The notes under the pieces are model-generated. The model had not been told where the DNA came from. It made no database searches and worked only from the letters and a program-made list of their open reading frames with translations. Position numbers and translations under genes: made by a program. Below, in pieces: positions 1,167-62,862 of a DNA stretch of 64,000 bases; within the stretch, counting starts at the first letter, position 1; every line of letters begins with the position of its first letter. Source of the stretch: an uncultured Pirellulales bacterium (GTDB lineage Bacteria; Planctomycetota; Phycisphaerae; Sedimentisphaerales; Anaerobacaceae); NCBI GenBank assembly GCA_964601355.1, contig CAZRNB010000001.1, positions 825 through 64,824 on the forward strand, in the 5' to 3' direction.

Positions 1167-2114
1167 TTACTCGGCAGTCGTAAGATGCTTTTTGAGATCC
1201 GGGTGAAAATGTCCCTCGAAGACTCCTTCAACCGGGCCGATCATCTGGATGCCCCAGTCGTTGTCGATTTCAACCAGCAACGTTCCGCCGGGCATTTTAA
1301 CATTTATGATTCTATCTACAAGTCCCAGCTTATAGGCCGCTGCGGCTGCTGCACATGAGCTGCTGCCGGAAGCAAGGGTATATCCTGCTCCTCTTTCCCA
1401 AATCCGTATCTCGATATTATTTCTGTCGAAGACCTTTAGAAGCTGCATGTTAATGCGATTCGGAAACACCTTGTGATTTTCAACGAAAGGCCCAATCTGT
1501 CGTGCCTTTTTCTCGCTCACCTCCGCCATCGGAATAACGCAATGGGGATTACCAATGGATAAACATGTCACTTTGTACTTATTTTTATTTATTTCAAGCT
1601 CCTCGTTGACAACCTCTCTTTTTTTGCCCGCAACCGGTATCTCGGTGCTGATGAAGGTGACTTTCCCCATACCGATTTTTATTAAGTTTGCAGTGTCATC
1701 TTTTATCTGAACTTCAACAACACCGCCTAATGTTTTGATTTTAAAATTCTTTTTATCGACGTATTTATTTTCAAATAGATATTTGGCAAATATCCGCAGG
1801 CCGTTGCCGCTTTTTTCAGCCTCGCTGCCGTCGGGATTGAAGATACGCAGCCCATATAAGTTTTGAGTTTTGAGTTCCCTCGACTCCGCTCGGGACAGGT
1901 TTGAGTTTTGAGTTTCTTTGATGGGGCCGTATAAAATTCCATCTGAGCCGATCCCATAATTTCTGTCACAAATCAGCCGAATGAACTGCGGCGTCAGCTT
2001 AATATCGTTGACGTTGGGGTCGATAACGAGGTAATCATTTCCAAGCCCGTGGTACTTTTTAAAATGTACTTCCATAGTTTTGCCCCTGATTATCTTCGCA
2101 GAAGTATCGGCCAA
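1167..2114 (-). CDS. dapF: diaminopimelate epimerase
   Basis: Motifs GLGNDYLVID, GIGSDGILYGP, IFNPDGSEAEKSGNGLRIF, SIGNPHCV and ERGAGYTLASGSSSCAAA are typical DapF. Carries an extra repeat-encoded segment (see 1860-1916). Confidence 0.9.
   Translation of the reverse strand: MADTSAKIIRGKTMEVHFKKYHGLGNDYLVIDPNVNDIKLTPQFIRLICDRNYGIGSDGILYGPIKETQNSNLSRAESRELKTQNLYGLRIFNPDGSEAEKSGNGLRIFAKYLFENKYVDKKNFKIKTLGGVVEVQIKDDTANLIKIGMGKVTFISTEIPVAGKKREVVNEELEINKNKYKVTCLSIGNPHCVIPMAEVSEKKARQIGPFVENHKVFPNRINMQLLKVFDRNNIEIRIWERGAGYTLASGSSSCAAAAAAYKLGLVDRIINVKMPGGTLLVEIDNDWGIQMIGPVEGVFEGHFHPDLKKHLTTAE
1860..1916. repeat. in-frame repeat insertion inside dapF: (GTTTTGA)n 7-mer flanks around CCCTCGACTCCGCTCGGGACAGG
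   Basis: Sequence gttttgagttttgagtt-ccctcgactccgctcgggacagg-tttgagttttgagtttc encodes TQNSNLSRAESRELKTQN between the conserved DapF blocks GILYGP and LRIFNPDGSEAE. It shares GGGACAGGTTTG with the pdxA insert. Confidence 0.75.
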
Positions 2115-4253: not shown

Positions 4254-4349
4254 GTCATTCCAGCGCAATGCCTGCCCTGAGCGCAGCCGAATGGGCGGGA
4301 ATCCACTGCTTCGATACGATAAATGGATACCCGCCTTCGCGGGTATGAC
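4254..4349. repeat. composite palindromic intergenic repeat (GTCATTCC...GGGAATCC / GGATACCCGCCTTCGCGGGTATGAC)
   Basis: gtcattccagcgcaatgcctgccctgagcgcagccgaatgggcgggaatcc followed by ggatacccgccttcgcgggtatgac (stem ATACCCGC/GCGGGTAT). The module CCCTGAGCGCAGCCGAA is related to the CTCAGGAC/CTCGGGAC modules at 1880, 13185 and 18145. Confidence 0.6.
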
Positions 4350-10223: not shown

Positions 10224-10517
10224 AACAACTCCCTAATTGTATTCAGGTTTTCCGCAGACTGTTTACGCCAGAGGCGTATAAATCTGCCAGTACTGGCCCC
10301 TGCGTCTCCCGACGCAAGTCGGGGCAGCGGGTAAGAAGTTCCCGATGTTTCTTCAATCGTCTGCCGGACGGCAATGTTGACGGACGAAGGTATGATTCTC
10401 TGCCCCCGGCCTTAAAGTATCAATATATCGTTAAACCAAGGAAGAAAACAAGCTTTTTGCGCAGCTATATAAAAAACAGCGTTAATCTGCGTTAATCAGT
10501 GTCTAAAAAATCCCATT

Positions 10518-12699: not shown

Positions 12700-13128
12700 C
12701 TCCGAAATCGCATTTTATGTCAAACTAATTTCATTTTTGAATCAAAATTTACAGACAAACACTATAAACATAGATTCTGCCATAATTTCTTTTGGCTTCG
12801 TACCAGGTCATCTCCTCGCCGTCAATGCGGCATGAATATGTCCGGTGGGCATGTCGCAATCATTTCGCGGGCCTCTATTGACTCATGACATAAACGCGCT
12901 TATGCCCGCCTCGACGAAACCTTTAAAATACCACGTTCCTGATAATGCTCCTTCTTCTTCAATATCCAATACGTCCCCTCCGCTCAAGACGGATGTTCTT
13001 TATTCCTTCACCCGAACTTACACACAATATATTACACTACTATACGCGTCTCCTTTCTGCGGCTTAACCGCAAATGTTTTTCTGATGCAGGGATTATATC
13101 CCAACACCAGGAGACGCGCTTTCATAAA

Positions 13129-13270
13129 ATCATTTCGAGCGAGCCGAAGGCGAGTCGAGAAATCTGCTTTAGATCCTTCGACTTCGCTCAGGACGCCTTA
13201 CGGCGGATTTCTCCGCTTCGCCCCTGTTTCTGTCTTCGACAGAAGACACGGGGGCTTCGCTCGAAATGAT
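13129..13270. mobile_element. MITE-like 142-bp element with perfect 14-bp terminal inverted repeats
   Basis: atcatttcgagcga at 13129-13142 and its exact reverse complement tcgctcgaaatgat at 13257-13270. The interior contains the CCTTCGACTTCGCTCAGGAC module and a gtctt/aagac hairpin. No coding capacity. Confidence 0.45.
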
Positions 13271-13595
13271 AGTGGGTCTTTTCTACAGAGCAATTTTGGT
13301 ATGTAATTTTTTATTTGTGCCTTTTGTAATTTAAATTTGTCTGGGCTGCCTTAAAGCCGATGATATACACTGACAAGCTGTTTCAACTGCATATATCTTT
13401 CGAACCTTTCAGATGCGCTTAAACTTACGAAACTTTCTAACGTCCTATAATTTTTATATTATCATATTTTTTATTCTCTTTCCTCATGTAATAGAATCTG
13501 CCTAAATTGCCTGTTCAATTCTATTTAGATTTTTTTAAGGGTTGATAATAAATAGCTTATCATGGCTAATATGGGAAATTTAATAATTTTTATTC

Positions 13596-16960: not shown

Positions 16961-17905
16961 ATGGTCAAACAAAATCGCCAAGACGGCTTACGCCAGAAAT
17001 ATCGTGGTGTTGTAGTCCCTATGGTGACTCCTTTTACACCGCATGGCGATATCGATCTGGACACCACCGGGAGACTCGTTGACCACATCGTTGGTAACGG
17101 GGCTTGCATATTCGCGCTCGGCACTACAGGAGAAGCAGCCTCTATCAGGAACTCGGCTAAGGCACAATTTATTGACACGGTCGTTAAAAAAAACGCGCAT
17201 AGAGCTATGACTTATGCAGGCATATCAGATAATTGCCTGGCTATTTCCGTGGACTTGGCCAAACAGTTTTTTGATTTAGGCGTTGATGTGGTCGTGGCAC
17301 ATGTGCCGAGCTATTATCCCTTGACCGGCGATGATATACTGAGCTACTACGAAACTCTGGCTGAGCACATTGGCGGCCCTTTGATGCTATACAATATTCC
17401 GATAACAACAGGAGTGTCAATTCCCTTAGAGGTAATTGACCGGCTCAGTCATCTTCCGACGATTATAGGATTAAAAGACTCGGATAATAACATGGACCGC
17501 ATGAAACAAGCCATTGCCTTGTGGAAGGACAGGGATGACTTTTCATACCTGAGCGGCTGCACGTCTCTGAGCAAGACTGCATTAGCTATGGGTGCAGACG
17601 GAATTGTGCCGAGCGTGGGCAACATTGTACCTGATTTATTCGTCAAGCTCTATAACTCTGTGCTGAATGGCGATCCGGATGAGGCGGAGCGGTGTCAGAG
17701 ATGTGCCAACGACATCTCGGATATTATTCAGAAGAACAAAACTTTGAGCCAATCGCTGCCTGTCCTGAAGGTGATAATGCACATCCTGGGATTTTGCGAG
17801 CCGAAAGTCCTGCCGCCTCTGCGCGACTTGACCGAAGATCAGATTCAAGACGTCAGAGAAACTTTGAATGACATGGGTCTCTTACAGGAAGGCCACTCAC
17901 TATGA
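16961..17905 (+). CDS. DapA/N-acetylneuraminate-lyase-family class I aldolase
   Basis: VVPMVTPF, GTTGEAASI, YNIP, and GLKDS (Schiff-base Lys). Confidence 0.85.
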   Translation: MVKQNRQDGLRQKYRGVVVPMVTPFTPHGDIDLDTTGRLVDHIVGNGACIFALGTTGEAASIRNSAKAQFIDTVVKKNAHRAMTYAGISDNCLAISVDLAKQFFDLGVDVVVAHVPSYYPLTGDDILSYYETLAEHIGGPLMLYNIPITTGVSIPLEVIDRLSHLPTIIGLKDSDNNMDRMKQAIALWKDRDDFSYLSGCTSLSKTALAMGADGIVPSVGNIVPDLFVKLYNSVLNGDPDEAERCQRCANDISDIIQKNKTLSQSLPVLKVIMHILGFCEPKVLPPLRDLTEDQIQDVRETLNDMGLLQEGHSL

Positions 17906-18999
17906 AAGACACAAGGCCTATTCTTGGAATCACGATGGGCGATCCTCACGGCATCGGCCCGGAGGTTGCCGTCAAGGCCCTGTCAAATAAGGACGTCTAT
18001 TCGCTTTGCAGGCCCTTGCTTATCGGCGATGCCAATGTATTCAAGCAGGCTATTACTTTTACTCGTCCCGGCGTAGCGGGCCGGAGCGGGACAGGTTTGG
18101 AATTGAAAGTCCGGCCGGTGCAAAGTGAGACCGATGCTGATCCTTCGACTTTGCTCAGGACAAGTTTCGAGCCGGGCCAAATCGACGTGCTTCAGCCGCA
18201 AGGCGGCTGTGTCCAAGAACTAAAATACGGAACTATCTCGGCTCAGGCCGGTCAGGCCGCTTTTGCTGCAATTGAAAAGGCAATCGAGCTGGCTCTTGGC
18301 GGAAGGATTGATGCAGTAGTGACAGGCCCGATCAATAAAGAAGCGATACGTTCAGCGGGACATAACTTCCCCGGCCATACCGAGATATTCGCCCATTATA
18401 CGGCTACCAGCGATTACGCAATGCTTCTGATCCATGGCGACCTGAGAGTAGTTCATGTCACAACCCATATTCCTATTCAGCAAGTCAGCCAAGCGATTAA
18501 CCAAGCGCGCATCTTAAAAGTTATTAAGCTGGCGCACGACGCCTGCCAAAAGCTCGGCATAATCCATCCTCGAATCGGCGTAGCAGGATTGAATCCTCAT
18601 GCCGGTGAGGGAGGTTTGTTTGGCCAAGAGGAGCACGAGCACATCGCACCAGCCATCGAAGCGGCCAGATCTATTGGGATCAATGCCGAAGGCCCTATTC
18701 CGCCGGATACGTTATTTCCAAAGGCTATTGGCGGATGGTTCGATGTCTGCGTTGCCATGTATCACGACCAGGGACATATACCCTTAAAAGTGATGGGTTT
18801 TATCTGGGACAAGGAAAATAAGCGATTGTCTTCCGTCAACGGTGTCAATATCACACTGGGACTTCCCATTATAAGAACTTCGGTTGATCATGGCACAGCC
18901 TTCGATATTGCAGGCCGAGGCATTGCCTCGCCGGACAGTATGATAAGCGCGATTACATACGCCGTAATATTGGCGAACTCAAACAAGACACAGGAATGA
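17902..18999 (+). CDS. PdxA-family NAD-dependent phospho-hydroxyacid dehydrogenase/decarboxylase (PdxA2-like)
   Basis: LGITMGDPHGIGPE, VTGPINKEA, GHTE, NPHAGE, MYHDQGHIPLK and RTSVDHGTAFDIAG. Start overlaps the upstream stop (ATGA). Contains a repeat insertion (18064-18175). Confidence 0.9.
   Translation: MKDTRPILGITMGDPHGIGPEVAVKALSNKDVYSLCRPLLIGDANVFKQAITFTRPGVAGRSGTGLELKVRPVQSETDADPSTLLRTSFEPGQIDVLQPQGGCVQELKYGTISAQAGQAAFAAIEKAIELALGGRIDAVVTGPINKEAIRSAGHNFPGHTEIFAHYTATSDYAMLLIHGDLRVVHVTTHIPIQQVSQAINQARILKVIKLAHDACQKLGIIHPRIGVAGLNPHAGEGGLFGQEEHEHIAPAIEAARSIGINAEGPIPPDTLFPKAIGGWFDVCVAMYHDQGHIPLKVMGFIWDKENKRLSSVNGVNITLGLPIIRTSVDHGTAFDIAGRGIASPDSMISAITYAVILANSNKTQE
18064..18175. repeat. in-frame mosaic repeat insertion inside the PdxA-family gene
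   Basis: ccggcgtagcgggccggagcgggacaggtttgg...gatccttcgactttgctcaggacaagtttcgagccggg encodes RPGVAGRSGTGLELKVRPVQSETDADPSTLLRTSFEPG. It shares GGGACAGGTTTG with the dapF insert and CCTTCGACTT(T/C)GCTCAGGAC with 13185-13204. Confidence 0.65.
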
Positions 19000-27431: not shown

Positions 27432-27514
27432 GAATTTGAATTAAGAATTGAGAATGTAGAATTTAGAATTAAACTTTTCCCTTTTCTCAATTCTCAATTC
27501 TAACTTCTAAATTC
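27432..27514. repeat. hairpin element, family A (AGAATTG/TAGAATT 7-mer arms)
   Basis: gaatttgaattaagaattgagaatgtagaatttagaatt-loop-tctcaattctcaattctaacttctaaattc followed by a T-run. 3' of ilvE. Related copies at 44293-44376 and 54013-54068. Confidence 0.75.
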
Positions 27515-27538
27515 TTTTTTTGCCTGATATTCAGATTT

Positions 27539-30020: not shown

Positions 30021-30085
30021 GAGTAGGATTCGGGGGTCAGGGGTCGGGAGTCGGCAAAAACCTGACCCCTGATCCCTGATCCCTT
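30021..30085. repeat. hairpin element, family C, full copy
   Basis: gagtaggattcgggggtcaggggtcgggagtcgg-caaaaac-ctgacccctgatccctgatccc. Nearly identical to the copy inside lysS at 34347-34417. Confidence 0.85.
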
Positions 30086-31528: not shown

Positions 31529-31541
31529 ATCTCAAAGTTTA

Positions 31542-31600
31542 GTTCATTGTTATTAGTTCATAGTTCATCGTCAATAAACAACGAACTATGAACAATGAAC
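31542..31600. repeat. hairpin element, family B (GTTCATN 7-mer arms)
   Basis: gttcattgttattagttcatagttcatcg-tcaataaaca-acgaactatgaacaatgaac. Related copies at 38344-38406 and 53882-53923. Confidence 0.75.
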
Positions 31601-32978: not shown

Positions 32979-34564
32979 TCTTTAAAAGGTTTCAGAAGTG
33001 GAAACAATACGACATCACGAATACTCAAAGCGCCGGTCAAGACCATAACCAATCTGTCAATTCCGATACCCAATCCACCTGCCGGCGGCATACCATACTT
33101 CAGCGCCGTTATATAGTCCTGGTCCATTTTGGTTAGTGATTCTTCCTGGCCGCGAAGCTGCGTAAGAAAATTCTCATATTGTTCCGCAGGGTCATTCAAC
33201 TCAGTATATGCATTCGCCAGCTCCATCTGGGCGACGAACAATTCAAATCGCTCGGCAAATCTTCCGTCATCCTTTTTACGTCTGGCTAAAGGACACAATA
33301 CGGCCGGATAATCAATCACAAACGTCGGGGCAATGAGATGCTCCTCAACGGTGGTCTCAAATACCTCATTGGTAACTACCGCGTCATCCAAAACATCCTC
33401 TTCTATACCGAGCGATTTTGCTTTTATTCTGATAGCTTGTATATCATCAATATTACAGCCGCTGTATTGCTTTAGAAGGTCCGCGTATCGGGCTCGCCGC
33501 CAGGGCCGCGTGAAATCCACAGCCATTTCGCCGAACATCACCCCATTAGAAATTTCTCCCTGAGAGGTAATCGCCTTCTTTTCGTTATTTCCAACGGGGT
33601 GAATCTGTTTGGCCGCGCTAAGTTTTTCCGCGCATGCGGAGATAGCATCCTCAGCCAATTCCATCATCACATTGTAATCAGCGTACGCTTGATACGCTTC
33701 GAGCATCGTAAATTCCGGATTGTGGTATCTGCTGATTCCTTCGTTGCGGAAGCTGCGATTTATCTCGAAGACCTTTTCCATCCCGCCCACCAGCAGTCTC
33801 TTGAGAAACAGCTCCGGCGAAATCCGCAGGAATAAATCCATATCAAGACTATTATGGTGCGTTATGAAAGGCTTTGCCGCGGCTCCGCCGGCTATGGTCT
33901 GCATCATCGGCGTCTCGACTTCCAGAAAACCCTTCGATACAAGGAGCTGGCGAATCGCAGCAATGACGTCGCTGCGTTTTTTAAACCGCTCCAGCACCTC
34001 AGGATTAGCCCACAGGTCAACGTATCTCTGCCGGTAGCGCAGGTCAATATCCGCCAGACCGTGAAACTTTTCCGGCGGCGGATACAAACACTTGCTCAAA
34101 AGTGTAAGGCGGTCAACCCAAATGGTTATCTCTCCCGTTTGGGTCCTGCCCAATTGACCGGCAGCACCGATTATATCACCAAGCTCAAGCAGCTTGGCAA
34201 GCTGCCAATCGTTTGCATTGGTTCCAATCAGACCCTTGCTCAAGCCGACCTGGATGGTTCCGCTGCTGTCACGCAGAGTAATAAATATCAGCTTGCCAAT
34301 ATCCCTCAGCAGCACAATCCTGCCTGCACAATTGGCACGCCCCGATGAGTAGGATTCGGGGGTCAGGGGTCGGGGGTCGGCAAAAACCTGACCCCTGAAC
34401 CCTGATCCCTGACCCCTTGCCGGGTCTTTGAATCTGCGCTTTACATCTTCAGCCGGCTCCGTATCCTCATATCTGCCGCCGTACGGCTCAATACCAAGCT
34501 GCTTAATTTGGTTCAGCTTTTCCTGTCTTTGTCGTTCAAATTTATCTTGTTTTGTATCTTGCAT
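32975..34564 (-). CDS. lysS: lysine--tRNA ligase (class II)
   Basis: RYRQRYVDL, EVETPMMQ..GGAAAKPF, FRNEGIS..HNPEFTMLE and GGLGIGIDRLVM. Contains a repeat insertion at 34347-34417. Confidence 0.95.
   Translation of the reverse strand: MQDTKQDKFERQRQEKLNQIKQLGIEPYGGRYEDTEPAEDVKRRFKDPARGQGSGFRGQVFADPRPLTPESYSSGRANCAGRIVLLRDIGKLIFITLRDSSGTIQVGLSKGLIGTNANDWQLAKLLELGDIIGAAGQLGRTQTGEITIWVDRLTLLSKCLYPPPEKFHGLADIDLRYRQRYVDLWANPEVLERFKKRSDVIAAIRQLLVSKGFLEVETPMMQTIAGGAAAKPFITHHNSLDMDLFLRISPELFLKRLLVGGMEKVFEINRSFRNEGISRYHNPEFTMLEAYQAYADYNVMMELAEDAISACAEKLSAAKQIHPVGNNEKKAITSQGEISNGVMFGEMAVDFTRPWRRARYADLLKQYSGCNIDDIQAIRIKAKSLGIEEDVLDDAVVTNEVFETTVEEHLIAPTFVIDYPAVLCPLARRKKDDGRFAERFELFVAQMELANAYTELNDPAEQYENFLTQLRGQEESLTKMDQDYITALKYGMPPAGGLGIGIDRLVMVLTGALSIRDVVLFPLLKPFKD
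34347..34417. repeat. family C hairpin element inserted in-frame in lysS
   Basis: gagtaggattcgggggtcaggggtcgggggtcggcaaaaacctgacccctgaaccctgatccctgacccct encodes ARGQGSGFRGQVFADPRPLTPESYS, N-terminal to the anticodon-binding OB fold. Confidence 0.85.
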
Positions 34565-38343: not shown

Positions 38344-38406
38344 CGTTCATTGTTATGAGTTCATAGTTCATCGATGAACAATGAACAGCGGACAATGAAC
38401 AACGAA
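38344..38406. repeat. hairpin element, family B
   Basis: gttcattgttatgagttcatagttcatcg|atgaacaatgaacagcggacaatgaacaacgaac, between the LptD-like gene and fba. Confidence 0.75.
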
Positions 38407-38411
38407 CATAG

Positions 38412-43156: not shown

Positions 43157-43176
43157 ATACGTTGTGCGTCTTATAA

Positions 43177-43263
43177 GTGCCTAAAGTGAGCTAAAGTGTC
43201 TAAAGTGAACTAAAGTTGTTGTTCTTAACTTTAGGCACTTTTAACTTTAGTCACTTTAGTCAC
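43177..43263. repeat. hairpin element, family D (CTAAAGTG 9-10-mer arms)
   Basis: gtgcctaaagtgagctaaagtgtctaaagtgaactaaagt-loop-aactttaggcacttttaactttagtcactttagtcac, 3' of pilT. Second copy at 60681-60789. Confidence 0.8.
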
Positions 43264-44292: not shown

Positions 44293-44376
44293 ATTTAGAG
44301 TAAGAGAATTTTGAATTTAGAATGTAGAATCCAGAAAATTCAATTCTCAATTCATCATTCTTAATTCTTAATTCTA
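44293..44376. repeat. hairpin element, family A
   Basis: atttagagtaagagaattttgaatttagaatgtagaat-loop-attcaattctcaattcatcattcttaattcttaattct. Confidence 0.75.
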
Positions 44377-55627: not shown

Positions 55628-57283
55628 TCACCTGTTTCGTGTTTTAAGATAATCAAGAACCACTAATTTGTCGCTGAAATTGAATTTCTGGGTTCCGATT
55701 ATTTGGTAGTTTTCATGGCCTTTGCCGGCGATAAGCACAATATCATCCTTGCCGGCAGTTCTTATGGCTAACTCGATGGCCTTTCTTCTATCCGGCTCAA
55801 TTATTTTCGTCGCTCGTCGCTCGTCGCTCGTCGCTCGTAATTCCGTATGCGGTACCGCAGGCCCTTTTTCAAAACCTGTAACTATTTCATTAATGATGCC
55901 TCCGGGTTTTTCTGTTCGCGGATTGTCACTGGTGACGATTACAATGTCTGCTAATTCCTCGGCGACTTTGGCCATTCGAGGACGTTTGGTTCTGTCCCTG
56001 TCGCCGCCGCAGCCAAAAACGACTATCAATCTGCCTTTGCACAAAGGTTTCAGTGTCGTCAGGACGTTTTTCAAGGCATCATCAGTATGGGCATAATCAA
56101 TTAACACGTGACTCGTCCATTCTCCGTAGCACTGCGAAGGATGAATCGCTTGTCGCTCGTCGCTCGCTGCTCGTTCCCTGACCCCCGACCCCCGACCCCC
56201 GACTCCTGAACAATCGACTTTTTCCAATCGGCCAGGCACGCCCTGCAGGACCGAAAGGCCTGCTGCTATCGTTTCCAAATCCATGCCGGATGCAAGGCAC
56301 AATCCCGCTGCTGCAAGGTGATTGCTGACATTATGAAGACCCAATAAAGGAGTCTTTACGAGTGACGAGTGACGAGTGACGAGTGACGATTCGTCTGCAT
56401 ACTCTAAAGTGAAAACCGTTCCATTTATGTCCGTCGATTCGGTGTGAGCAGTAATATCCGCTGGTTCATCGATAGCATACCATAAGATTTTGGCCTTTGT
56501 ATTTTTGGCAATATGCTCAGCCTGGGGTGATTGCTTGTTCAATACCGCAACCGCATCAGGCAAAAGGGCGGAAAAAAGTTTCGTCTTGGCGGCCAAATAA
56601 TCTTCTGTGGTCTTGTGATAGTCCAGGTGGTCGCCGGTGAGGTTGGTAAAAGCTGCTGCTGTAAAATTTATCCCAGCCAGGCGATTCTGTGACAGGGCAT
56701 GGCTGCTGGCCTCGATGACCATATATTCGCAGCCGGCTTTAATCATTTCCTGCTGGATGCGTGCAATTTCCAGGCAATCCGGTGTTGTCATTGAAGCCTG
56801 GCAGATGCTACGGCCTGTGTCGTATTCAACGGTGCCGATTAGGCCGCACTTTTTGCCGGCCGTTTGTATTATCGACCGAACCAAATAAGCCGTAGTAGTT
56901 TTGCCGTTTGTGCCGGTGACGGCGAGATTGATTAGTAGCGAAGCCGGATTACCAGCCCTTGCCTGTGCCAGAAGGGCTGCCGCTTCTGCGGAATTTTTCA
57001 CGTCGATAATCTCGATACTCGATGCTTGATGCTGGATACCGTCACCACAGGGGTGACGGCTAAACATCGTCCATCGTCCGTCGTCTCTCGTCCCTCGTTT
57101 TTTCTTCTGGCAAACTATGTATTTTGCGCCTTTGGCGATGGCCTGGTCGATGAAGTCATGGCCGTCACAGTTGGCGCCTTTGATAGCTACAAATATATCG
57201 CCGTCTTTGACGAGCCGTGAATCAATGCAAATATTTGGGTGATCGACGGAAGATGCCAACGCTAATAATTCGTTGAATGTCAT
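55628..57283 (-). CDS. murE: UDP-N-acetylmuramoyl-L-alanyl-D-glutamate--2,6-diaminopimelate ligase
   Basis: VTGTNGKTTT, EASSHAL, FTNLTGDHLDYH, IDYAHTDDAL, FGCGGDRDRTKRP, DNPRTE and AGKGHE. The ORF is intact despite four repeat insertions. Confidence 0.95.
   Translation of the reverse strand: MTFNELLALASSVDHPNICIDSRLVKDGDIFVAIKGANCDGHDFIDQAIAKGAKYIVCQKKKRGTRDDGRWTMFSRHPCGDGIQHQASSIEIIDVKNSAEAAALLAQARAGNPASLLINLAVTGTNGKTTTAYLVRSIIQTAGKKCGLIGTVEYDTGRSICQASMTTPDCLEIARIQQEMIKAGCEYMVIEASSHALSQNRLAGINFTAAAFTNLTGDHLDYHKTTEDYLAAKTKLFSALLPDAVAVLNKQSPQAEHIAKNTKAKILWYAIDEPADITAHTESTDINGTVFTLEYADESSLVTRHSSLVKTPLLGLHNVSNHLAAAGLCLASGMDLETIAAGLSVLQGVPGRLEKVDCSGVGGRGSGVRERAASDERQAIHPSQCYGEWTSHVLIDYAHTDDALKNVLTTLKPLCKGRLIVVFGCGGDRDRTKRPRMAKVAEELADIVIVTSDNPRTEKPGGIINEIVTGFEKGPAVPHTELRATSDERRATKIIEPDRRKAIELAIRTAGKDDIVLIAGKGHENYQIIGTQKFNFSDKLVVLDYLKTRNR
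55805..55864. repeat. murE insertion 4: (TCGTCGC)x4 plus the palindrome GCGGTACCGC
   Basis: Tandem 7-mers at 55807-55834, then taattccgtatgcggtaccgcagg. Encodes GPAVPHTELRATSDERRATK between VTGFEK and IIEPDRR. Confidence 0.85.
56109..56216. repeat. murE insertion 3: mosaic of a core-like module, degenerate TCGTCGC 7-mers and family C GACCCCC units
   Basis: ctccgtagcactgcgaaggatgaatcgc-ttgtcgctcgtcgctcgctgctcgttcc-ctgacccccgacccccgacccccgactcc encodes CSGVGGRGSGVRERAASDERQAIHPSQCYGEWTSH, between GRLEKVD and VLIDYAHT. Confidence 0.85.
56360..56387. repeat. murE insertion 2: (GAGTGAC)x4 perfect tandem 7-mers
   Basis: Four exact copies encode SSLVTRHSSLV, before the conserved PLLGLHNVSN. Confidence 0.85.
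57012..57100. repeat. murE insertion 1: TCGATAC/GATGCTG 7-mers, perfect hairpin CCGTCACC-ACAG-GGGTGACGG, CATCGTC 7-mers
   Basis: Encodes KRGTRDDGRWTMFSRHPCGDGIQHQASSIE between IVCQKK and IIDVKNSAEA. Confidence 0.85.
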
Positions 57284-58194: not shown

Positions 58195-60666
58195 TTATTT
58201 TCCCGGCAGATCGAAAGTTTTATACGTTGTATTATCAACGTCGTCTTTGACTTTGACGGTGAGGATATGCTCACCGGCTTTCAAATCTTCTACTACAATT
58301 GTGAAGCTCTCATCTGTAGTATCATAAACCAGGTCGTCAGGAATGGAGCCTTTCCATTCTGCATTGCTGTCAACGGTGTATTGCACCTCGCCGATTATGC
58401 TTAGCTCGTCATGCACCAGCAGCTTTAATGTTATTGTGCTGTCGGTTTTTGTAATAGAGTTTTCACCGATGACCGGCCCGGTATTATCGATTATCACCGG
58501 ATCGCTTATTCTGCTGTCCGTCAGTTTGGTTGCCGCATTATTGCTTCTTTCATCGCTTGCGGTTACTCTGAGCTCATACCGGCCATCTTCAACGGTCCTT
58601 CCGTCCCAGTCGAAGCTATCTGCTTCGTGCTCGTCTTCAAGCTCAATCCAGTTAGTTCTGCCGATTTTTCTAAGGTCTATCTTGTAGATCAGCTTGTCAC
58701 TGTTGTCGTCCTTTGCCTTATAGGTAATTTTGAATCCTCCGGGAAGGATTTTATTGGTAGGCTCAACCCGGCTGACATTGACGGATTCAACCTTCGGAGC
58801 CAGATTCGGCACGGTGCTGGCAACTGCAATTTCCCTTATAATGGGAGTTTTAAGACCGTCTTCGCTTTTCAGGATAAGTTTATATTGGCAGAATCTGCCG
58901 ATTGGACAAGACAGTTGTACCGGCTCATTTATCTCTATCGGCTCAGTCCAATCCGAAAAAGTTGGGTCGTTCACGTCTTCAACGTTACCGCTGCGGGATG
59001 CTATCAAAACCTTGCATCCCTGCGGGATGTCGGCCTCAATTTGCAGCTTGCCCCACCTGGCAGGCTGACCGGCGTCAATCAGGTCGGAAATGTAGGTACC
59101 ATCCGCAGCAAAAGTTTTGTTTAGCTTTATCAGCTTTGGAGGATTTGCGGTCCCAAGATACACAACACCATCGGCCACGGCTATCGATGTTATCTGTGAT
59201 GCCTGCTCGTCCTCATAAACAATTGCCTGCTGCTCCGTCGCCGGGTCGATGGTAAAAAGTTGAGCGGAGTTTCCCGTTCCTACAAGCAGCTTTGAATCTT
59301 GTTCGGCCAAGCAGAAGAAAACCGCTGTCTCGCTGAATACATCGGTTACAAAACCCTCTTTGTTTATTTTGTGTATAACGCTGGTTTTATCAGATTTGGC
59401 TGCCTGGCGGGGTGGCATCTTTTTGCCGGCTGATTCATCAACTGCTCGTCTTTTTATATTTGCTATTTGCAGCTTACGTCCCGATACATCGGGATTGACG
59501 GAGTCTTCCCGCTTTTGCGAGGGCACCTCAGGCCGACCCGCCACAAACGATTCCGCTGCAAAACTTGTTTCAGCCTGGACGGCCTGGGCCGATGTTGCCG
59601 CCGCGTATAAATATGTATCTGCAGAAGTCAAAGTCGATGCCGACAGCAGCGCTGTAATCTCAGGCTGCTCACTGTCATACAAAACCGTCGCTGTTTTAGT
59701 GCGTGGATTTATTTTATATACCAGTCCTCGGCCGTCGCTGCCGGCATAAATTGAACCATCTTTTGCAGTGGCTAACGAAAGGATGTTTTTGTCTCGACTG
59801 GTATAAATAATTTGTGCCTCTCTGCCCAGAGAGTCGAGCTGATACACATTGCCCTTCGGCCCCGTACCTAAATAAATATTACCTACATTATCGGTAGCTA
59901 TGGCGAAGATATATCTGGTGTCATCCGCAGCGCCGAAAGGTGTCCTGCGGAGCGGCGGGTCTGATCCGGTCCAGGCTTTCAGCCTGGTCGTCCTGGGCTC
60001 AAAAATCGTTTCCAGCTTGTTTCCTTCAAGCCGACACAGTCTGCATTCTTTACCACTTATACCTGCCAGCAGCCTGCCAGAAACATCGGTAGCCATCGCA
60101 AAAATATGCTCATTTGACAGATGCCGTTCTTCCCCCTCGGCTGCACTCGGGACAGGCTTAACCTCGTTTGCATCGTTGATCTCGTCTGTACTTTCAATCT
60201 CCGCAGGACACCTTTCGGTGCTGTCGGTGGCAGGCTCATTATCCTGCTCGGCATCCGGTTCTTCCCCCCGGAAGGGGTCCTGTGGACTGGGAGGATCTTC
60301 TATTGTGGGATTTTTCTCGGGCTTTTGATCACTTTGCAGAGGATATACCTTTGTCAATTGCCCGATGCTGTATTTATAAATGCCTCCGTTGGGACTTGTG
60401 CCGATGTAAATTATGCCGCCGCTTATAACGATGCTGTTTATCGACCAGACATTCTCGAGCTTCTCAACCAGAACTTGCGAGGCATATCCAAGCTGAATAA
60501 TCCCCCGAAGGTCAATGACAATGTTTTCGGTTTTGCCCTTTAGTAAATCAGCACCGCTTTTGTGGTGTATAATTTTTGTTGTGACCGCTCGGCTCTGAGT
60601 AACAAAAAACATAGGTAATATGCAGCTTGCAAGTGCACAAATCACAAAAATTCTTTTATGTGTCAT
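58195..60666 (-). CDS. secreted repeat protein (beta-propeller-like repeats plus C-terminal Ig-like region)
   Basis: Signal peptide (FVICALASCILPMFFV). A recurring motif (I/V)Y(L/I/A)G(T/S)xxxGx(V/I/L)(Y/F/I)K(Y/I/L) appears at least 5 times. An acidic disordered linker is present, and the C-terminus is beta-rich. Confidence 0.65.
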   Translation of the reverse strand: MTHKRIFVICALASCILPMFFVTQSRAVTTKIIHHKSGADLLKGKTENIVIDLRGIIQLGYASQVLVEKLENVWSINSIVISGGIIYIGTSPNGGIYKYSIGQLTKVYPLQSDQKPEKNPTIEDPPSPQDPFRGEEPDAEQDNEPATDSTERCPAEIESTDEINDANEVKPVPSAAEGEERHLSNEHIFAMATDVSGRLLAGISGKECRLCRLEGNKLETIFEPRTTRLKAWTGSDPPLRRTPFGAADDTRYIFAIATDNVGNIYLGTGPKGNVYQLDSLGREAQIIYTSRDKNILSLATAKDGSIYAGSDGRGLVYKINPRTKTATVLYDSEQPEITALLSASTLTSADTYLYAAATSAQAVQAETSFAAESFVAGRPEVPSQKREDSVNPDVSGRKLQIANIKRRAVDESAGKKMPPRQAAKSDKTSVIHKINKEGFVTDVFSETAVFFCLAEQDSKLLVGTGNSAQLFTIDPATEQQAIVYEDEQASQITSIAVADGVVYLGTANPPKLIKLNKTFAADGTYISDLIDAGQPARWGKLQIEADIPQGCKVLIASRSGNVEDVNDPTFSDWTEPIEINEPVQLSCPIGRFCQYKLILKSEDGLKTPIIREIAVASTVPNLAPKVESVNVSRVEPTNKILPGGFKITYKAKDDNSDKLIYKIDLRKIGRTNWIELEDEHEADSFDWDGRTVEDGRYELRVTASDERSNNAATKLTDSRISDPVIIDNTGPVIGENSITKTDSTITLKLLVHDELSIIGEVQYTVDSNAEWKGSIPDDLVYDTTDESFTIVVEDLKAGEHILTVKVKDDVDNTTYKTFDLPGK
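59931..59987. repeat. 22-nt core (59931-59952, reverse orientation) plus hairpin CCAGGCT-TTC-AGCCTGG, in-frame
   Basis: Encodes ...KAWTGSDPPLRRTPFGAADD... in the propeller-like protein. Confidence 0.75.
60199..60220. repeat. 22-nt core copy (one substitution) in the acidic linker of the same protein
   Basis: CTCCGCAGGACACCTTTCGGTG, read as TERCPAE. Confidence 0.75.
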
Positions 60667-60680
60667 AATAACTCCCAGAA

Positions 60681-60789
60681 GTGCCTAAAATTTAGAGTGA
60701 CTAAAGTGCCTAAAGTTACGAAATATAATCTTAGCTTGCTTTAGGCACTTTAGCTCACTTTAGGCACTTTAGCTCACTTTAGGCACTTT
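60681..60789. repeat. hairpin element, family D, long copy
   Basis: gtgcctaaaatttagagtgactaaagtgcctaaagt-loop-ctttaggcactttagctcactttaggcactttagctcactttaggcacttta, between the S55-like gene and the propeller-like gene. Confidence 0.8.
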
Positions 60790-60810
60790 ATCTAATTGGA
60801 TTCTGTCACA

Positions 60811-62862
60811 CTATTTCTCTACCGTTATACGCATACTTTTTCTATCGGCTACGATTGTGCCTGTTCTTACACTTTTTTCGAGCCATTGTGGATAGGGCTG
60901 GATTCTTAATGCTCTTATATCATCCTGCATGACAAGCGTTTTTGTCGCCGGCAAATCAGGAAGCTCAGACCTTTCTACTGCTATGCCGCTGGGCGGTAAA
61001 ACTAAAAGGCAGTACAATTTATCTCTATTGATGCTTAAAACATCGTTCAATGCCTCAATCAGACTCGTCATATCATACGCGATAAATCTATACGGGACGG
61101 TTTTCCGCAGATGCTGTTCATATTCGGACGAGCCTAATACAATCAATTCGTATTTCCCGGGATTGAGACCTTCGGGTATTTTCAGGCTGAACTGATATTT
61201 TTTCTTTTCTGAGAGGTACGATTCGAGAACGACGTCCACCTGGATTTGATGCCCAGGCTTAATACTCGAATCAGACAAATCGACCGACCATATATAAGAG
61301 GCGATGTTTTTCGGCAGGATGCGGATATCGAAATCAAGTGATGTTATATCAACTTCCTCAAAGGGATTGTTCATTAGCAGAAGCACGGAACCTTTACTTT
61401 CGGCTATCATTTCAGCCGTAGATAGTCCTGTGGATATATTTTCAAAATTGATCCCTATTTGTTGGGATTTGTCTTTCAGGCCGATACTTACCTTGTATTC
61501 AATCGTATGGTCCGGCGGAAAGCTGCCGAGGGACATAACTGCTCCAGACACGGTTGCATGGAGCAGCTCAGGAGTAAGCAATCGATTGTTGGCGAGCCGG
61601 CAGTTAAAACTTGCATCCCGTCGAAATCGGCTTTGCTCCCGTCCAGACAATCGGCCTGGCTGCTCTTGTGTGTTAAAACGGCTCACTTTTATCGTCAGCG
61701 GTATCATCTGCGGCGTTGCACCGATTTGCCCGAAAATCGCTGTTGGTTCGTCGGTTGTCAAGGCGCCGACTATTTCCATGCTGCTACCGAGCTTAAAAGA
61801 ACGAGCCAGATTTGATACAATGGTATGCACTTGGCCGGTGGCCATTGGCAAATCTATCGCTCCATAACCAAGCAGGCTGTGGCCAAAACCATAGACCTTA
61901 TCTCCCACAATCTCAGTGACGGTCCCAAGCACAGTCGATGTTATATCACCATCGACTAACGGCACCGTAAGAACTGCACCCGGGGTTAGCTGCACCTTTT
62001 GAGTATTGTTGGCATCCGAATTGCCTCCAATGCCCGAAACAGCCATAAGCCCGTAAGGCTCAAGCAAGGCCTCGAATTGTTTACAGGCATCAGGCGGCAG
62101 GCCGGAAATAATTAACGGGCACGGCAGCCATCCCAGCGCCGAAAGGTGTCCTGCGGAGCTGGATGCTGGATGCTGGATGCTGGATGCTGAATGCTCGACG
62201 AGAATCGAGCGTCGAGAATTGAGCATCGAGTTAATTTCAGCAAAATCGATCGGCTTGGAAAAATCGAGCGCAAATCCCATTTTGTTGGATTTCAAATCGT
62301 TGGCACTGCCTACTTTGAGCATTTCTTTAATCGGCGTAACGCCGTAAAGCGGGTCTTTGCTGAGTGTCCAGGCGAAAGACATCGCCCCGGCCAGCCGGCC
62401 TTCAATATAGACCGGCGAGCCGCTGCACCCGGCTACGGGACCTGTGTAAATAAAACGCTTATCTGTGCCTTGAACCAAAATCGCATCTCGACCCGGCTCA
62501 ATATTGTGCACCACACTTATAACATCCAAATCGAACTTCTCGATTTTGGTGCCGCTGTAACAGGTAAGACAATATGCCTTCATCCCAGGAGTAATCTCAT
62601 CAATGCTTATATATTTGGCTGGATCCCAAAGGTCTTTTGCAGAGCTTTTGCTGGGTGGGGCCGTATCTGGCGCAGCATTTTTTCCCACCTGCTGAGCGGA
62701 TTCACAAAGAGAGTCAGCTAAAAGCAGAAGACAGAAGACAAAAGCCGGAAAACAGAGGACAGAGGACGGAGAACGGAAATTCTGCCTTCTGTCTTCCGTC
62801 TTCTGTCTTCTATATTCTGTATTCTTTTTTTGCCCTTTTGCCCTTGTTTTTATTATGAACAT
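60811..62862 (-). CDS. secreted SpoIVB/S55-like serine peptidase-domain protein
   Basis: GCSGSPVYIEGRLAGAMSFAW (GxSGSP serine motif) and GTVTEIVGDKVYGFGHSLLGYG resemble peptidase S55. The N-terminal signal peptide is encoded by the family F repeat. Confidence 0.55.
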   Translation of the reverse strand: MFIIKTRAKGQKKNTEYRRQKTEDRRQNFRSPSSVLCFPAFVFCLLLLADSLCESAQQVGKNAAPDTAPPSKSSAKDLWDPAKYISIDEITPGMKAYCLTCYSGTKIEKFDLDVISVVHNIEPGRDAILVQGTDKRFIYTGPVAGCSGSPVYIEGRLAGAMSFAWTLSKDPLYGVTPIKEMLKVGSANDLKSNKMGFALDFSKPIDFAEINSMLNSRRSILVEHSASSIQHPASSSAGHLSALGWLPCPLIISGLPPDACKQFEALLEPYGLMAVSGIGGNSDANNTQKVQLTPGAVLTVPLVDGDITSTVLGTVTEIVGDKVYGFGHSLLGYGAIDLPMATGQVHTIVSNLARSFKLGSSMEIVGALTTDEPTAIFGQIGATPQMIPLTIKVSRFNTQEQPGRLSGREQSRFRRDASFNCRLANNRLLTPELLHATVSGAVMSLGSFPPDHTIEYKVSIGLKDKSQQIGINFENISTGLSTAEMIAESKGSVLLLMNNPFEEVDITSLDFDIRILPKNIASYIWSVDLSDSSIKPGHQIQVDVVLESYLSEKKKYQFSLKIPEGLNPGKYELIVLGSSEYEQHLRKTVPYRFIAYDMTSLIEALNDVLSINRDKLYCLLVLPPSGIAVERSELPDLPATKTLVMQDDIRALRIQPYPQWLEKSVRTGTIVADRKSMRITVEK
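62137..62230. repeat. 22-nt core followed by about ten 7-mers (CTGGATG x3, degenerating to CTCGACG/AGAATCG/AGCATCG), in-frame
   Basis: CGCCGAAAGGTGTCCTGCGGAG-ctggatgctggatgctggatgctgaatgctcgacgagaatcgagcgtcgagaattgagcatcgag encodes SRRSILVEHSASSIQHPASSSAGHLSALG. Confidence 0.85.
62724..62826. repeat. long family F hairpin inside the 5' end of the S55-like ORF
   Basis: Left arm gcagaagacagaagacaaaagccggaaaacagaggacagaggacggagaacggaa, right arm ttctgccttctgtcttccgtcttctgtcttctatattctgtattc. gaagacagaagac and gtcttctgtcttc are perfectly complementary. Confidence 0.85.

Follow-up and report, generated by a model that had tools for sequence, protein, structure and literature searches.

Very small dispersed repeats (SDRs) were reportedly described by Elhai et al. 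in 2008 in Nostoc and its relatives as units of 21-27 nt, said to be mobile, nested in heptamer repeats and without an encoded enzyme. What moves repeats too small to encode anything, or to resemble MITEs (miniature inverted-repeat transposable elements), has been an open question ever since. Repetitive extragenic palindromic (REP) and REPIN sequences, mobilised by REP-associated tyrosine transposases (RAYTs), feature a short stem-loop with an unpaired conserved tag (PMC3116915; PMC3733652); their tag is either GTAG or CGTC, and cases of REPs within genes are on record (PMC3733652). Heptanucleotide repeats are over-represented in bacteria, typically at about 4 units, and a polymerase-slippage origin has been proposed for them (PMC4679880; PMC4692102). 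Examples include GGGNATC repeats (PMC4692102) and TAACTGA repeats (PMC4679880), and long simple sequence repeats (SSRs) of this period, in the findings of Mrazek et al. (2007) as summarised in PMC4679880, lie mostly in intergenic DNA beside the ends of open reading frames (ORFs). Rickettsia palindromic elements and other MITEs occur in frame in genes (reviewed in PMC10969869). The locus described here lies in a 64,000-nt stretch (the window) of contig CAZRNB010000001.1, from an uncultured Pirellulales bacterium (assembly GCA_964601355.1). Its dapF-like gene carries an insert that, in our judgement, probably comprises two nested in-frame micro-insertions, selfish or neutral, in a permissive beta-hairpin loop: a tandem heptamer array and, within it, a 24-nt module belonging to a dispersed family.

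The gene and the parts of its insert are as follows.

1167 to 2075, minus strand: dapF-like gene, 302 aa, start MEVHFKKYHG (ORF, TIGR00652, alignment to DapF structures in the Protein Data Bank)
1854 to 1916, minus strand: whole novel loop segment, 63 nt or 21 codons (ETQNSNLSRAESRELKTQNLY) replacing 5 codons (e.g. SGDIP), from a protein alignment and a DNA alignment of 16 orthologs
1860 to 1876, minus strand: one half of the heptamer array, GTTTTGA x2.4 on the plus strand and ACTCAAA on the coding strand (Tandem Repeats Finder, TRF), continuous with 1901-1916 in alleles that have the array only
1877 to 1900, plus strand: 24-nt module CCCTCGACTCCGCTCGGGACAGGT, equally placeable at 1876-1899, an exact 24-nt gap against array-only alleles (covariance model, CM, 35.7 bits, E 6.7e-6)
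1901 to 1916, minus strand: other half of the array, TTGA GTTTTGA GTTTC on the plus strand (TRF, ortholog alignment)

The frame is open over 1167-2114, and the real start is probably the ATG at 2075, which gives the 302-residue product. This protein scores 240.7 bits with the NCBIfam DapF equivalog TIGR00652, above the cutoff of 114.65, can be aligned over its full length with solved DapF structures (best E 2.8e-60) and has its nearest relatives among uncultured Phycisphaerae/Sedimentisphaerales. At the positions of the canonical catalytic cysteine pair of DapF (Cys73/Cys217, H. influenzae numbering) it has serine, S89 and S236, with KSGNG and TLASGSSSC aligning to the (M)CGNG and TLACGTGAC of solved DapF. 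The same Ser/Ser arrangement is found in 118 of 120 close relatives, the comparison set for proteins being the 120 best cluster representatives of DapF relatives. Judged by sequence, the Ser/Ser family would be either an epimerase with unusual chemistry or a protein of different function.

A first-pass annotation had read positions 1860-1916 as a 57-nt element interrupting dapF in frame, with direct 7-mer flanks. The string it quoted is present there exactly, and the minus-strand frame is indeed open through it, the insert reading as KETQNSNLSRAESRELKTQNLYG between GSDGILYGPI and LRIFNPDGSEAE (...GSDGILYGPIKETQNSNLSRAESRELKTQNLYGLRIFNPDGSEAE... across the insert) and falling in a loop between strands 46-52 and 73-79 of the structural model. 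The flanks are direct GTTTTGA heptamers as claimed, TRF finding perfect period-7 runs at 1859-1876 (x2.6) and 1900-1915 (x2.3), both at 100% matches. The unity of the element has to be given up: relative to alleles with an empty loop the novel segment is 63 nt long, and ortholog DNA resolves it into two nested layers.

Comparison with relatives makes these layers visible. For DNA the set comprised 16 close dapF orthologs; L-numbers below designate ortholog or module-family loci. Among the 120 proteins, internal length variation is confined to this loop: 109 have a nine-residue connector between GILYGP and RIFNPDG (e.g. IKSGDIPEL), and the longer connectors gain 8 residues in five proteins, 16 in five and 19 in one. 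The insert likewise falls in a gap against every solved DapF, and its peptide is not conserved in DapF of other phyla. At the DNA level three states occur. The empty state, AAA AGT GGT GAC ATC CCA GAA, is found in L002, L083, L089 and others (nine empty alleles aligned). The array-only state, AAA GAA ACT CAA AAC TCA AAA CTC AAA ACT CAA AAC TTG TAT GAG, is carried by L082, L084, L085, L086, L087 and L088, six alleles from four lineages that uniformly have 4.6 units of ACTCAAA and an open frame. The array-plus-module state is seen only in the window and in L081 (90% protein and 85% DNA identity).

Between the last two states the sole difference, by alignment and blastn, is one 24-nt gap, ACCTGTCCCGAGCGGAGTCGAGGG on the coding strand, with a 1-nt boundary ambiguity. 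Deleting 1877-1900 from the window sequence restores an unbroken GTTTTGA run, the same run that the orthologs contain. Whether or not the module is present, the array counts four full units, with no 7-nt duplication and no array bases lost; module insertion therefore duplicated nothing. A target-duplication model, in which the arrays would be stacked 7-bp footprints of module insertions, fails on the same count. Relative to the empty allele the net gain is 48 nt, the heptamer patch alone exchanging 15 nt for 39 nt. A short-peptide homology search for further array alleles returned nothing usable.

With an uncultured source genome, and with repeats that can mislead assemblers, one might ask whether the insert is an assembly or sequencing artefact or a chance resemblance. 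The 63-nt segment recurs with 2 differences, however, in an independent Joint Genome Institute sample (L081, at 85% gene identity), array-only alleles come from five further samples, and shuffle controls yield zero matches, which leaves such an explanation a negligible chance.

The same loop has been entered elsewhere. In L091 (protein P0035) a clean 24-nt CCTTCGACTGTGCTCAGGGCAGGC lies between GGC and AGT codons of the DapF loop, without heptamers; it is in sense orientation, opposite to the window copy relative to the gene, and matches that copy at 18 of 24 positions. From its sequence and placement we read it as an independent insertion of the module in another lineage. Other lineages have unrelated material at this spot: the hairpin repeats CCCAGCCG-CCCT-CGGCTGGG and CCCCG-AGGG-CGGGG in L062, L044 and L031, and further unrelated inserts in L030/L058, L047, P0056/P0098, P0076 and P0118 (Phycisphaerae). 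Several of these are G+C-rich hairpin repeats, partly nested, such as the +21 nt of L062 and the +48 nt of L044. A common 24-nt quantum for all inserts was considered, 10 of the 11 length-variant DapF proteins having gained 8 or 16 aa; the +7-aa insert of murE in the window, however, consists of three heptamers, and heptamer growth in 21-nt steps therefore fits better.

The centre of the dapF insert had been described as a dispersed module with a relative in pdxA, and a covariance model built from family members bears this out. The family consensus is (Y)CCTTCGACTTCGCTCAGGRCAGGC, and five copies lie in the window at E <= 0.0011. The centre CCCTCGACTCCGCTCGGGACAGG alone finds a second window match at up to three mismatches (2 matches), against 0 in 100 shuffles. 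Besides the dapF copy, the five found with the covariance model are:

18142 to 18165, plus strand: sister copy in pdxA, codon-aligned, PSTLLRTS (CM 38.9 bits)
13174 to 13198, plus strand: intergenic sister copy inside a composite palindromic element (sequence match, CM)
4266 to 4297, minus strand: intergenic sister copy (CM 26.1 bits, E 8.6e-4)
60130 to 60161, plus strand: sister copy inside and antisense to an 823-aa ORF at 58195-60666 (sequence match, CM)

Both relatives named in the first-pass annotation thus exist, one of them at 18142-18165; the other had been placed slightly off, at 13181-13200, and lies at 13175-13198. The pdxA copy is exactly 8 codons long and coincides with an 8-residue gap against solved PdxA (DPSTLLRT). 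That gene (17902-18999) has three extra segments relative to solved PdxA, at 18066-18099, 18142-18165 and about 18799-18835; the first is 10 aa long (TRPGVAGRSG) and ends in GGGACAGGT, and the third is about 11 aa near residue 300. The intergenic copy belongs to a composite palindromic element at 13120-13280, whose outer arms TCATTTCGAGCGA...TCGCTCGAAATGA surround the module copy and an inner hairpin (CCCCTGTTTCTGTCTTCGACAGAAGACACGGGGG); a 153-aa ORF crossing it (12845-13306) is probably spurious.

It had also been proposed that modules recombine into mosaics. On this account heptamer flanks and central modules are interchangeable and the 57 nt are one recombinant element, and some observations do lean that way: the 12-mer GGGACAGGTTTG, said to be shared with pdxA and recurring there at 18088-18099, joins module and T-rich sequence in dapF and pdxA alike, and modules adjoin other repeat types at many loci. 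Orthologs with an intact array and no module, differing by a precise 24-nt indel, nevertheless point to serial nesting, and nothing shows recombination of modules. Nor are heptamers flanks proper to the module, other copies having quite different flanks that are unrelated across at least 119 loci. The ACTCAAA array, for its part, is unique to dapF in 1.47 Mb and is thus not a shuffled dispersed piece. We regard the mosaic account as quite unlikely and retain serial nesting of array and module.

The module itself has a recognisable anatomy, given here in the orientation of the family consensus with position 1 as the first C of CCTTCG. In dapF, T1876 and CCC1877-1879 pair with GGGA1892-1895, enclosing a loop at 1880-1891 and followed by the tail CAGGT at 1896-1900. 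Watson-Crick covariation is found at pairs 0-19, 1-18, 2-17 and 3-16. Pair 3-16 is TA in 140 cases, CG in 23 and TG in 4, with CA absent; double changes to GC and to AT are among the variants of pair 1-18, and in one family copy the whole stem is swapped to GG..CC. Over 144 distinct sequences 92.7% of cells are paired, with double changes in all four pairs; compensatory cells number 48 against 15.3 +/- 2.9 in shuffles (none of 500 shuffles as high), and slid registers are all lower in paired cells and in covariation score. At the sequence level this pattern supports a 12-nt loop (TCGACTTCGCTC), highly conserved and closed by a stem of 4 bp, with an unpaired CAGGY tail after the stem. Read from the opposite strand, the 39 C0-A19 mismatches would become G-T wobbles, so that the folded strand is probably the complement, GCCTG-YCCY-GAGCGAAGTCGA-RGGR; in dapF this is the coding strand. 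The five clean insertions all have, just before the unit, the same base with which it ends, reflecting either a one-base ambiguity or a one-base duplication.

The family extends well beyond the window. A scan with the pattern CCYTCGACTNNGCTCRGGRCAGG, taking one genome per species, matched at least 119 loci where chance would give an estimated 2-11, depending on G+C; shuffled loci gave zero family matches. Among the matches listed are Acidobacteriota, Chloroflexota, Nitrospirota, Verrucomicrobiota, Kiritimatiellia, Patescibacteria, Bacteroidota isolates, Proteobacteria, Binatia, Cyanobacteria and Planctomycetota. In these same listed matches the two free pattern positions are strongly biased (T in 70 of 119, C in 96 of 119), conservation reaches the bases on either side of the pattern (Y preceding it, C and then T following), and about one third of copies are set deep within long frames free of stops, the figure for random positions being 70%. 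Module flanks show stronger pairing than control sites do (Mann-Whitney P = 0.005), with perfect flank stems of at least 7 bp at 10 of the 119 listed loci against 5 of 595 controls, and some copies occupy hairpin apices. Where copies stand in tandem the period is 24 nt. Others are nested in GTCATCCTGAGC-type repeats (L103, L115, L212) or sit as clean 24-nt units inside other heptamer arrays, TTTTGGA in L208 (Leptolyngbyaceae) and CTTCCAA in L170 (a Chloroflexi metagenome-assembled genome, MAG). In the L208 MAG, at about 850-1000, two module copies break one TTTTGGA array at the same phase, beside a GGTGTCA-type array. The L208 architecture is the same as that of dapF, here in a cyanobacterium.

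No Rfam family reached its gathering score anywhere in the window, the sub-threshold hits around the insert and the composite element being noise or generic hairpin matches; phages carry essentially no copies; and a full-text literature search turned up no relevant mention of the motif or of its peptides. One copy, in L213 (Sphingomonas plasmid NZ_CP155752.1, 928-1248), supplies the 3' end of a small ORF for a GIY-YIG nuclease (...ALRLRSGRTRE*), illustrating that module repeats can extend or create annotated C-termini. That nuclease was considered as a mobiliser and set aside, as tblastn detected homologs neither in the window nor among the 119 module-seeded loci.

The heptamer patch, the older layer in the nested scheme, shows signs of having travelled between lineages. 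In a comparison that masks the loop, genes with the array fail to form one group: the allele is polyphyletic, occurring in at least four lineages (L081, L082 and L085 also carry it), while the nearest relatives, at up to 94% DNA identity, have an empty loop. The patch itself hardly varies. L084 (array) and L092 (empty) are 93.8% identical over the whole 3.1-kb contig, the 24-nt loop difference making up nearly all of the 25 gapped positions, and L084 is only about 79% identical to other array alleles. L087 (array) is likewise closest to L093 (empty). The array alleles share non-repeat patch ends (GAA..., ...CTTGTAT) and are therefore homologous, not convergent. Given the polyphyly, the patch has probably passed from lineage to lineage; homologous recombination over short tracts, anchored in very conserved flanks, would be the simplest route. 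In the 30 nt upstream of the patch L084 has five differences from its sister that resemble the window clade (the window, L081, L082, L083, L089), a pattern that may hint, at about P = 0.05, at an imported tract of roughly 100 nt; L087 has no such hitch-hiking upstream.

Between the window and L081, 15% of gene positions differ, against only 2 of 63 insert positions where about 9 would be expected. Conservation of this kind, together with an array allele in at least four lineages whose nearest relatives do without it and a DapF family unusual in any case for Ser/Ser at its catalytic positions, could be taken to mean that the insert peptide was selected as a functional gain, providing a new surface or regulation, and spread for that reason. 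The insert is modelled as a low-confidence loop, however, and the same spot holds unrelated sequence, hairpin repeats or a reversed module in other lineages; the module itself recurs in pdxA, in intergenic DNA and in many phyla, and 109 of the 120 relatives manage without any insert. Adaptive extension of the loop is on balance an unlikely account.

Tolerance of passengers seems to describe the loop better. The AlphaFold model has a mean pLDDT of 82, the insert between its two strands scoring 48-57 against about 90 elsewhere, which is consistent with a tolerated passenger. The same model would place the turn about one strand-length from the active-site loop, the strand after the insert leading there. 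At the coding level, the array cycles through three frames as protein, and ACTCAAA is stop-free in all three on the coding strand, the complement having TGA. The module consensus has a single stop, which arises when its complementary strand is read as CTG CCC TGA, the frame used in dapF; the dapF copy, with its G16 variant, reads CGA instead. Both layers persist in dapF, then, because their lengths are multiples of three, the array is stop-free, the G variant removes TGA and the turn is a disordered surface one. Only three-unit changes of the array keep the frame, and 4.6 units correspond to a 1.6-unit seed plus three units (21 nt, the smallest in-frame expansion). A DNA hairpin at the empty site was tried as the cause of repeated insertion; four empty alleles have no consistent fold (z = +1.5, +0.95, -1.8, +1.5), so that repeated use of the loop is best explained by tolerance, not targeting.

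Since each 7-nt unit gained or lost shifts the coding frame, and heptamer tracts abound in the window, the tract might instead be a contingency locus that switches dapF off and on by slippage, the module merely interrupting it. Against this, the 4.6 units and the open frame are common to all six array-only alleles, in four lineages, dapF is a housekeeping gene of biosynthesis, and the module splits the tract into 2.4 and 2.3 units. Such switching is highly improbable.

The history that we favour would run in two steps. Five loop codons would have been replaced by a 39-nt patch based on tandem ACTCAAA x4.6, a state observed in the array-only alleles. A 24-nt member of the (Y)CCTTCGACTTCGCTCAGGRCAGGC family would then, as the ortholog DNA documents, have entered mid-array without target duplication or loss, the patch also passing between related lineages by short-tract recombination. 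By analogy, the module may be recognised in single-stranded form and be copied or mobilised in trans by an enzyme that it does not encode, landing preferentially in transiently single-stranded or slipped DNA such as hairpin apices and heptamer arrays. The best analogy for its movement would be a REP/RAYT or IS200/IS605-like HUH mechanism, the chemistry of which involves hairpins in single-stranded DNA and insertion without duplication, with precise excision possible.

Several points weigh against this history. Thermodynamic folding of the module and of the 57 nt is no better than that of shuffles (z = +1.1 to +1.4), and the stem, only 4 bp long, was found through covariation alone. Part of that covariation, the CCC..GGG variant, could be one inherited subfamily, in which case independent compensatory events would be fewer than the cells counted. 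The HUH mechanism is an analogy. As to how the heptamer patch arose, the ACTCAAA array occurs nowhere else in 1.47 Mb, and a single-unit precursor allele (IKETQNLYEL) was not seen among the 120 relatives. Array-only alleles could derive from precise excision of the module instead of preceding it, and near-identity of the insert between lineages could reflect constraint, not recent transfer. A structural target, finally, does not explain repeated insertion in this loop, and selection for tolerance has to account for it.

The wider distribution suggests a bolder proposition, which we consider doubtful: that the module is a pan-bacterial micro-mobile element, near-identical in sequence from Cyanobacteria through Patescibacteria to Planctomycetes, and that an unrecognised activity acting in trans, conserved in hosts or widely shared, inserts it without duplication into DNA that is single-stranded or slipped. 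If true, MITEs would be larger by an order of magnitude than this class of mobile DNA; being 24 nt long and nearly free of stops, the element could colonise essential genes, and interrupted heptamer arrays may be products or preferred substrates of the same process. Because the family is conserved across phyla with a covariation-supported stem-loop, it can be searched for by covariance model in all genomes, and comparing copy number with candidate enzymes across genomes makes the mechanism testable.

Even at the scale of a single gene the locus is instructive. Empty, array-only and array-plus-module states survive in related genomes, alongside an independent insertion in the same loop, which makes dapF a clean natural experiment and a record of the entry and survival of very small repeats in essential genes. 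It illustrates how essential enzymes acquire loop insertions, and how patches can pass between species via very short recombination tracts. In annotation, modules create spurious peptides and length variants in many uncultured phyla.

Heptamer arrays are a common background in this DNA. The window has 30 period-7 arrays against 1.2 per shuffle, and the heptamer background is a genome-wide trait, in keeping with the over-representation, the usual length of about four units and the suggested slippage origin cited at the beginning; a dispersed ACTCAAA family was considered and dropped, the array being found in dapF alone in 1.47 Mb. Many window arrays form hairpins of an array and its inverted copy that fill intergenic spacers. 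Such array plus inverted-complement hairpins, at 27432-27515, 30026-30084, 31539-31600, 34356-34417, 38345-38408, 44305-44375 and 62720-62845, nearly fill short spacers between same-direction genes, and their units vary by site (GGGGTCA, GAATTTA, TAGTTCA, CAGAAGA and others). An essential peptidoglycan gene, for a MurE-like Mur ligase (55628-57283, minus strand), has four in-frame arrays, at 55807-55838, 56146-56203, 56358-56389 and 57011-57098; two in-frame murE arrays share the 4.6-unit size seen in dapF. Relative to solved MurE the inserts include +7 aa (LVTRHSS, the three heptamers mentioned above) and +16 aa (TSDERRA...), and at 57011-57098 a hairpin module, CCGTCACCACAGGGGTGACGG, lies between two different arrays. 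Two other repeats were seen in passing. A 39-nt segment at 10293-10331, CTGGCCCCTGCGTCTCCCGACGCAAGTCGGGGCAGCGGG, is missing in the related contig L083 and resembles another hairpin-type module insertion; and a 19-nt unit (AAGTGCCTAAAGTGARCTA / TTAGCTCACTTTAGGCACT) stands in tandem at 43175-43263 and 60731-60790 in opposite orientations, with an inverted pair at 43175-43263.

How, then, does the dapF insert compare with the systems set out at the beginning? Its array resembles heptanucleotide long SSRs in consisting of tandem 7-nt units in a window where period 7 is over-represented. It differs from them in that the units are locus-specific, with no single genome-wide motif, and in that the arrays here are often inverted pairs forming hairpins and several lie in frame, in dapF and murE. 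With Rickettsia palindromic elements and MITEs the insert shares the character of a selfish repeat tolerated in frame in essential genes, typically in surface regions. Those elements, however, are about 100-150 nt or longer and palindromic, often with inverted ends and target duplications; with no inverted ends, no duplication and only 24 nt, the module is neither.

The likeness to REPs goes further: a stem-loop with an unpaired end tag, G-T pairing tolerated on one strand, copies often in inverted pairs or in larger hairpins, a mostly but not only extragenic distribution, and neither terminal inverted repeats nor target duplication. On the other hand, the tag is CAGGY (GCCTG on the other strand), GTAG and CGTC occurring in neither module strand; the stem has 4 bp against the usual 6-9 and is not thermodynamically stable; the 12-nt loop, not the stem, is most conserved; and single 24-nt units insert cleanly. 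The comparison with REPs drew on loci of 8 kb each and one 64-kb window. With SDRs the module shares its 24-nt unit, the exact indels (in dapF, L091 and pdxA) and the 24-nt tandem period; it is dispersed and multicopy, with clean presence or absence at orthologous dapF sites, and is nested in heptamer arrays (dapF, L208, L170) and other repeats. Unlike SDRs, compared here by description, it occurs in many phyla, is found in frame within housekeeping genes and forms a mini stem-loop that covariation supports. The SDRs are thus the closest description of the module, the architecture of which is REP-like.

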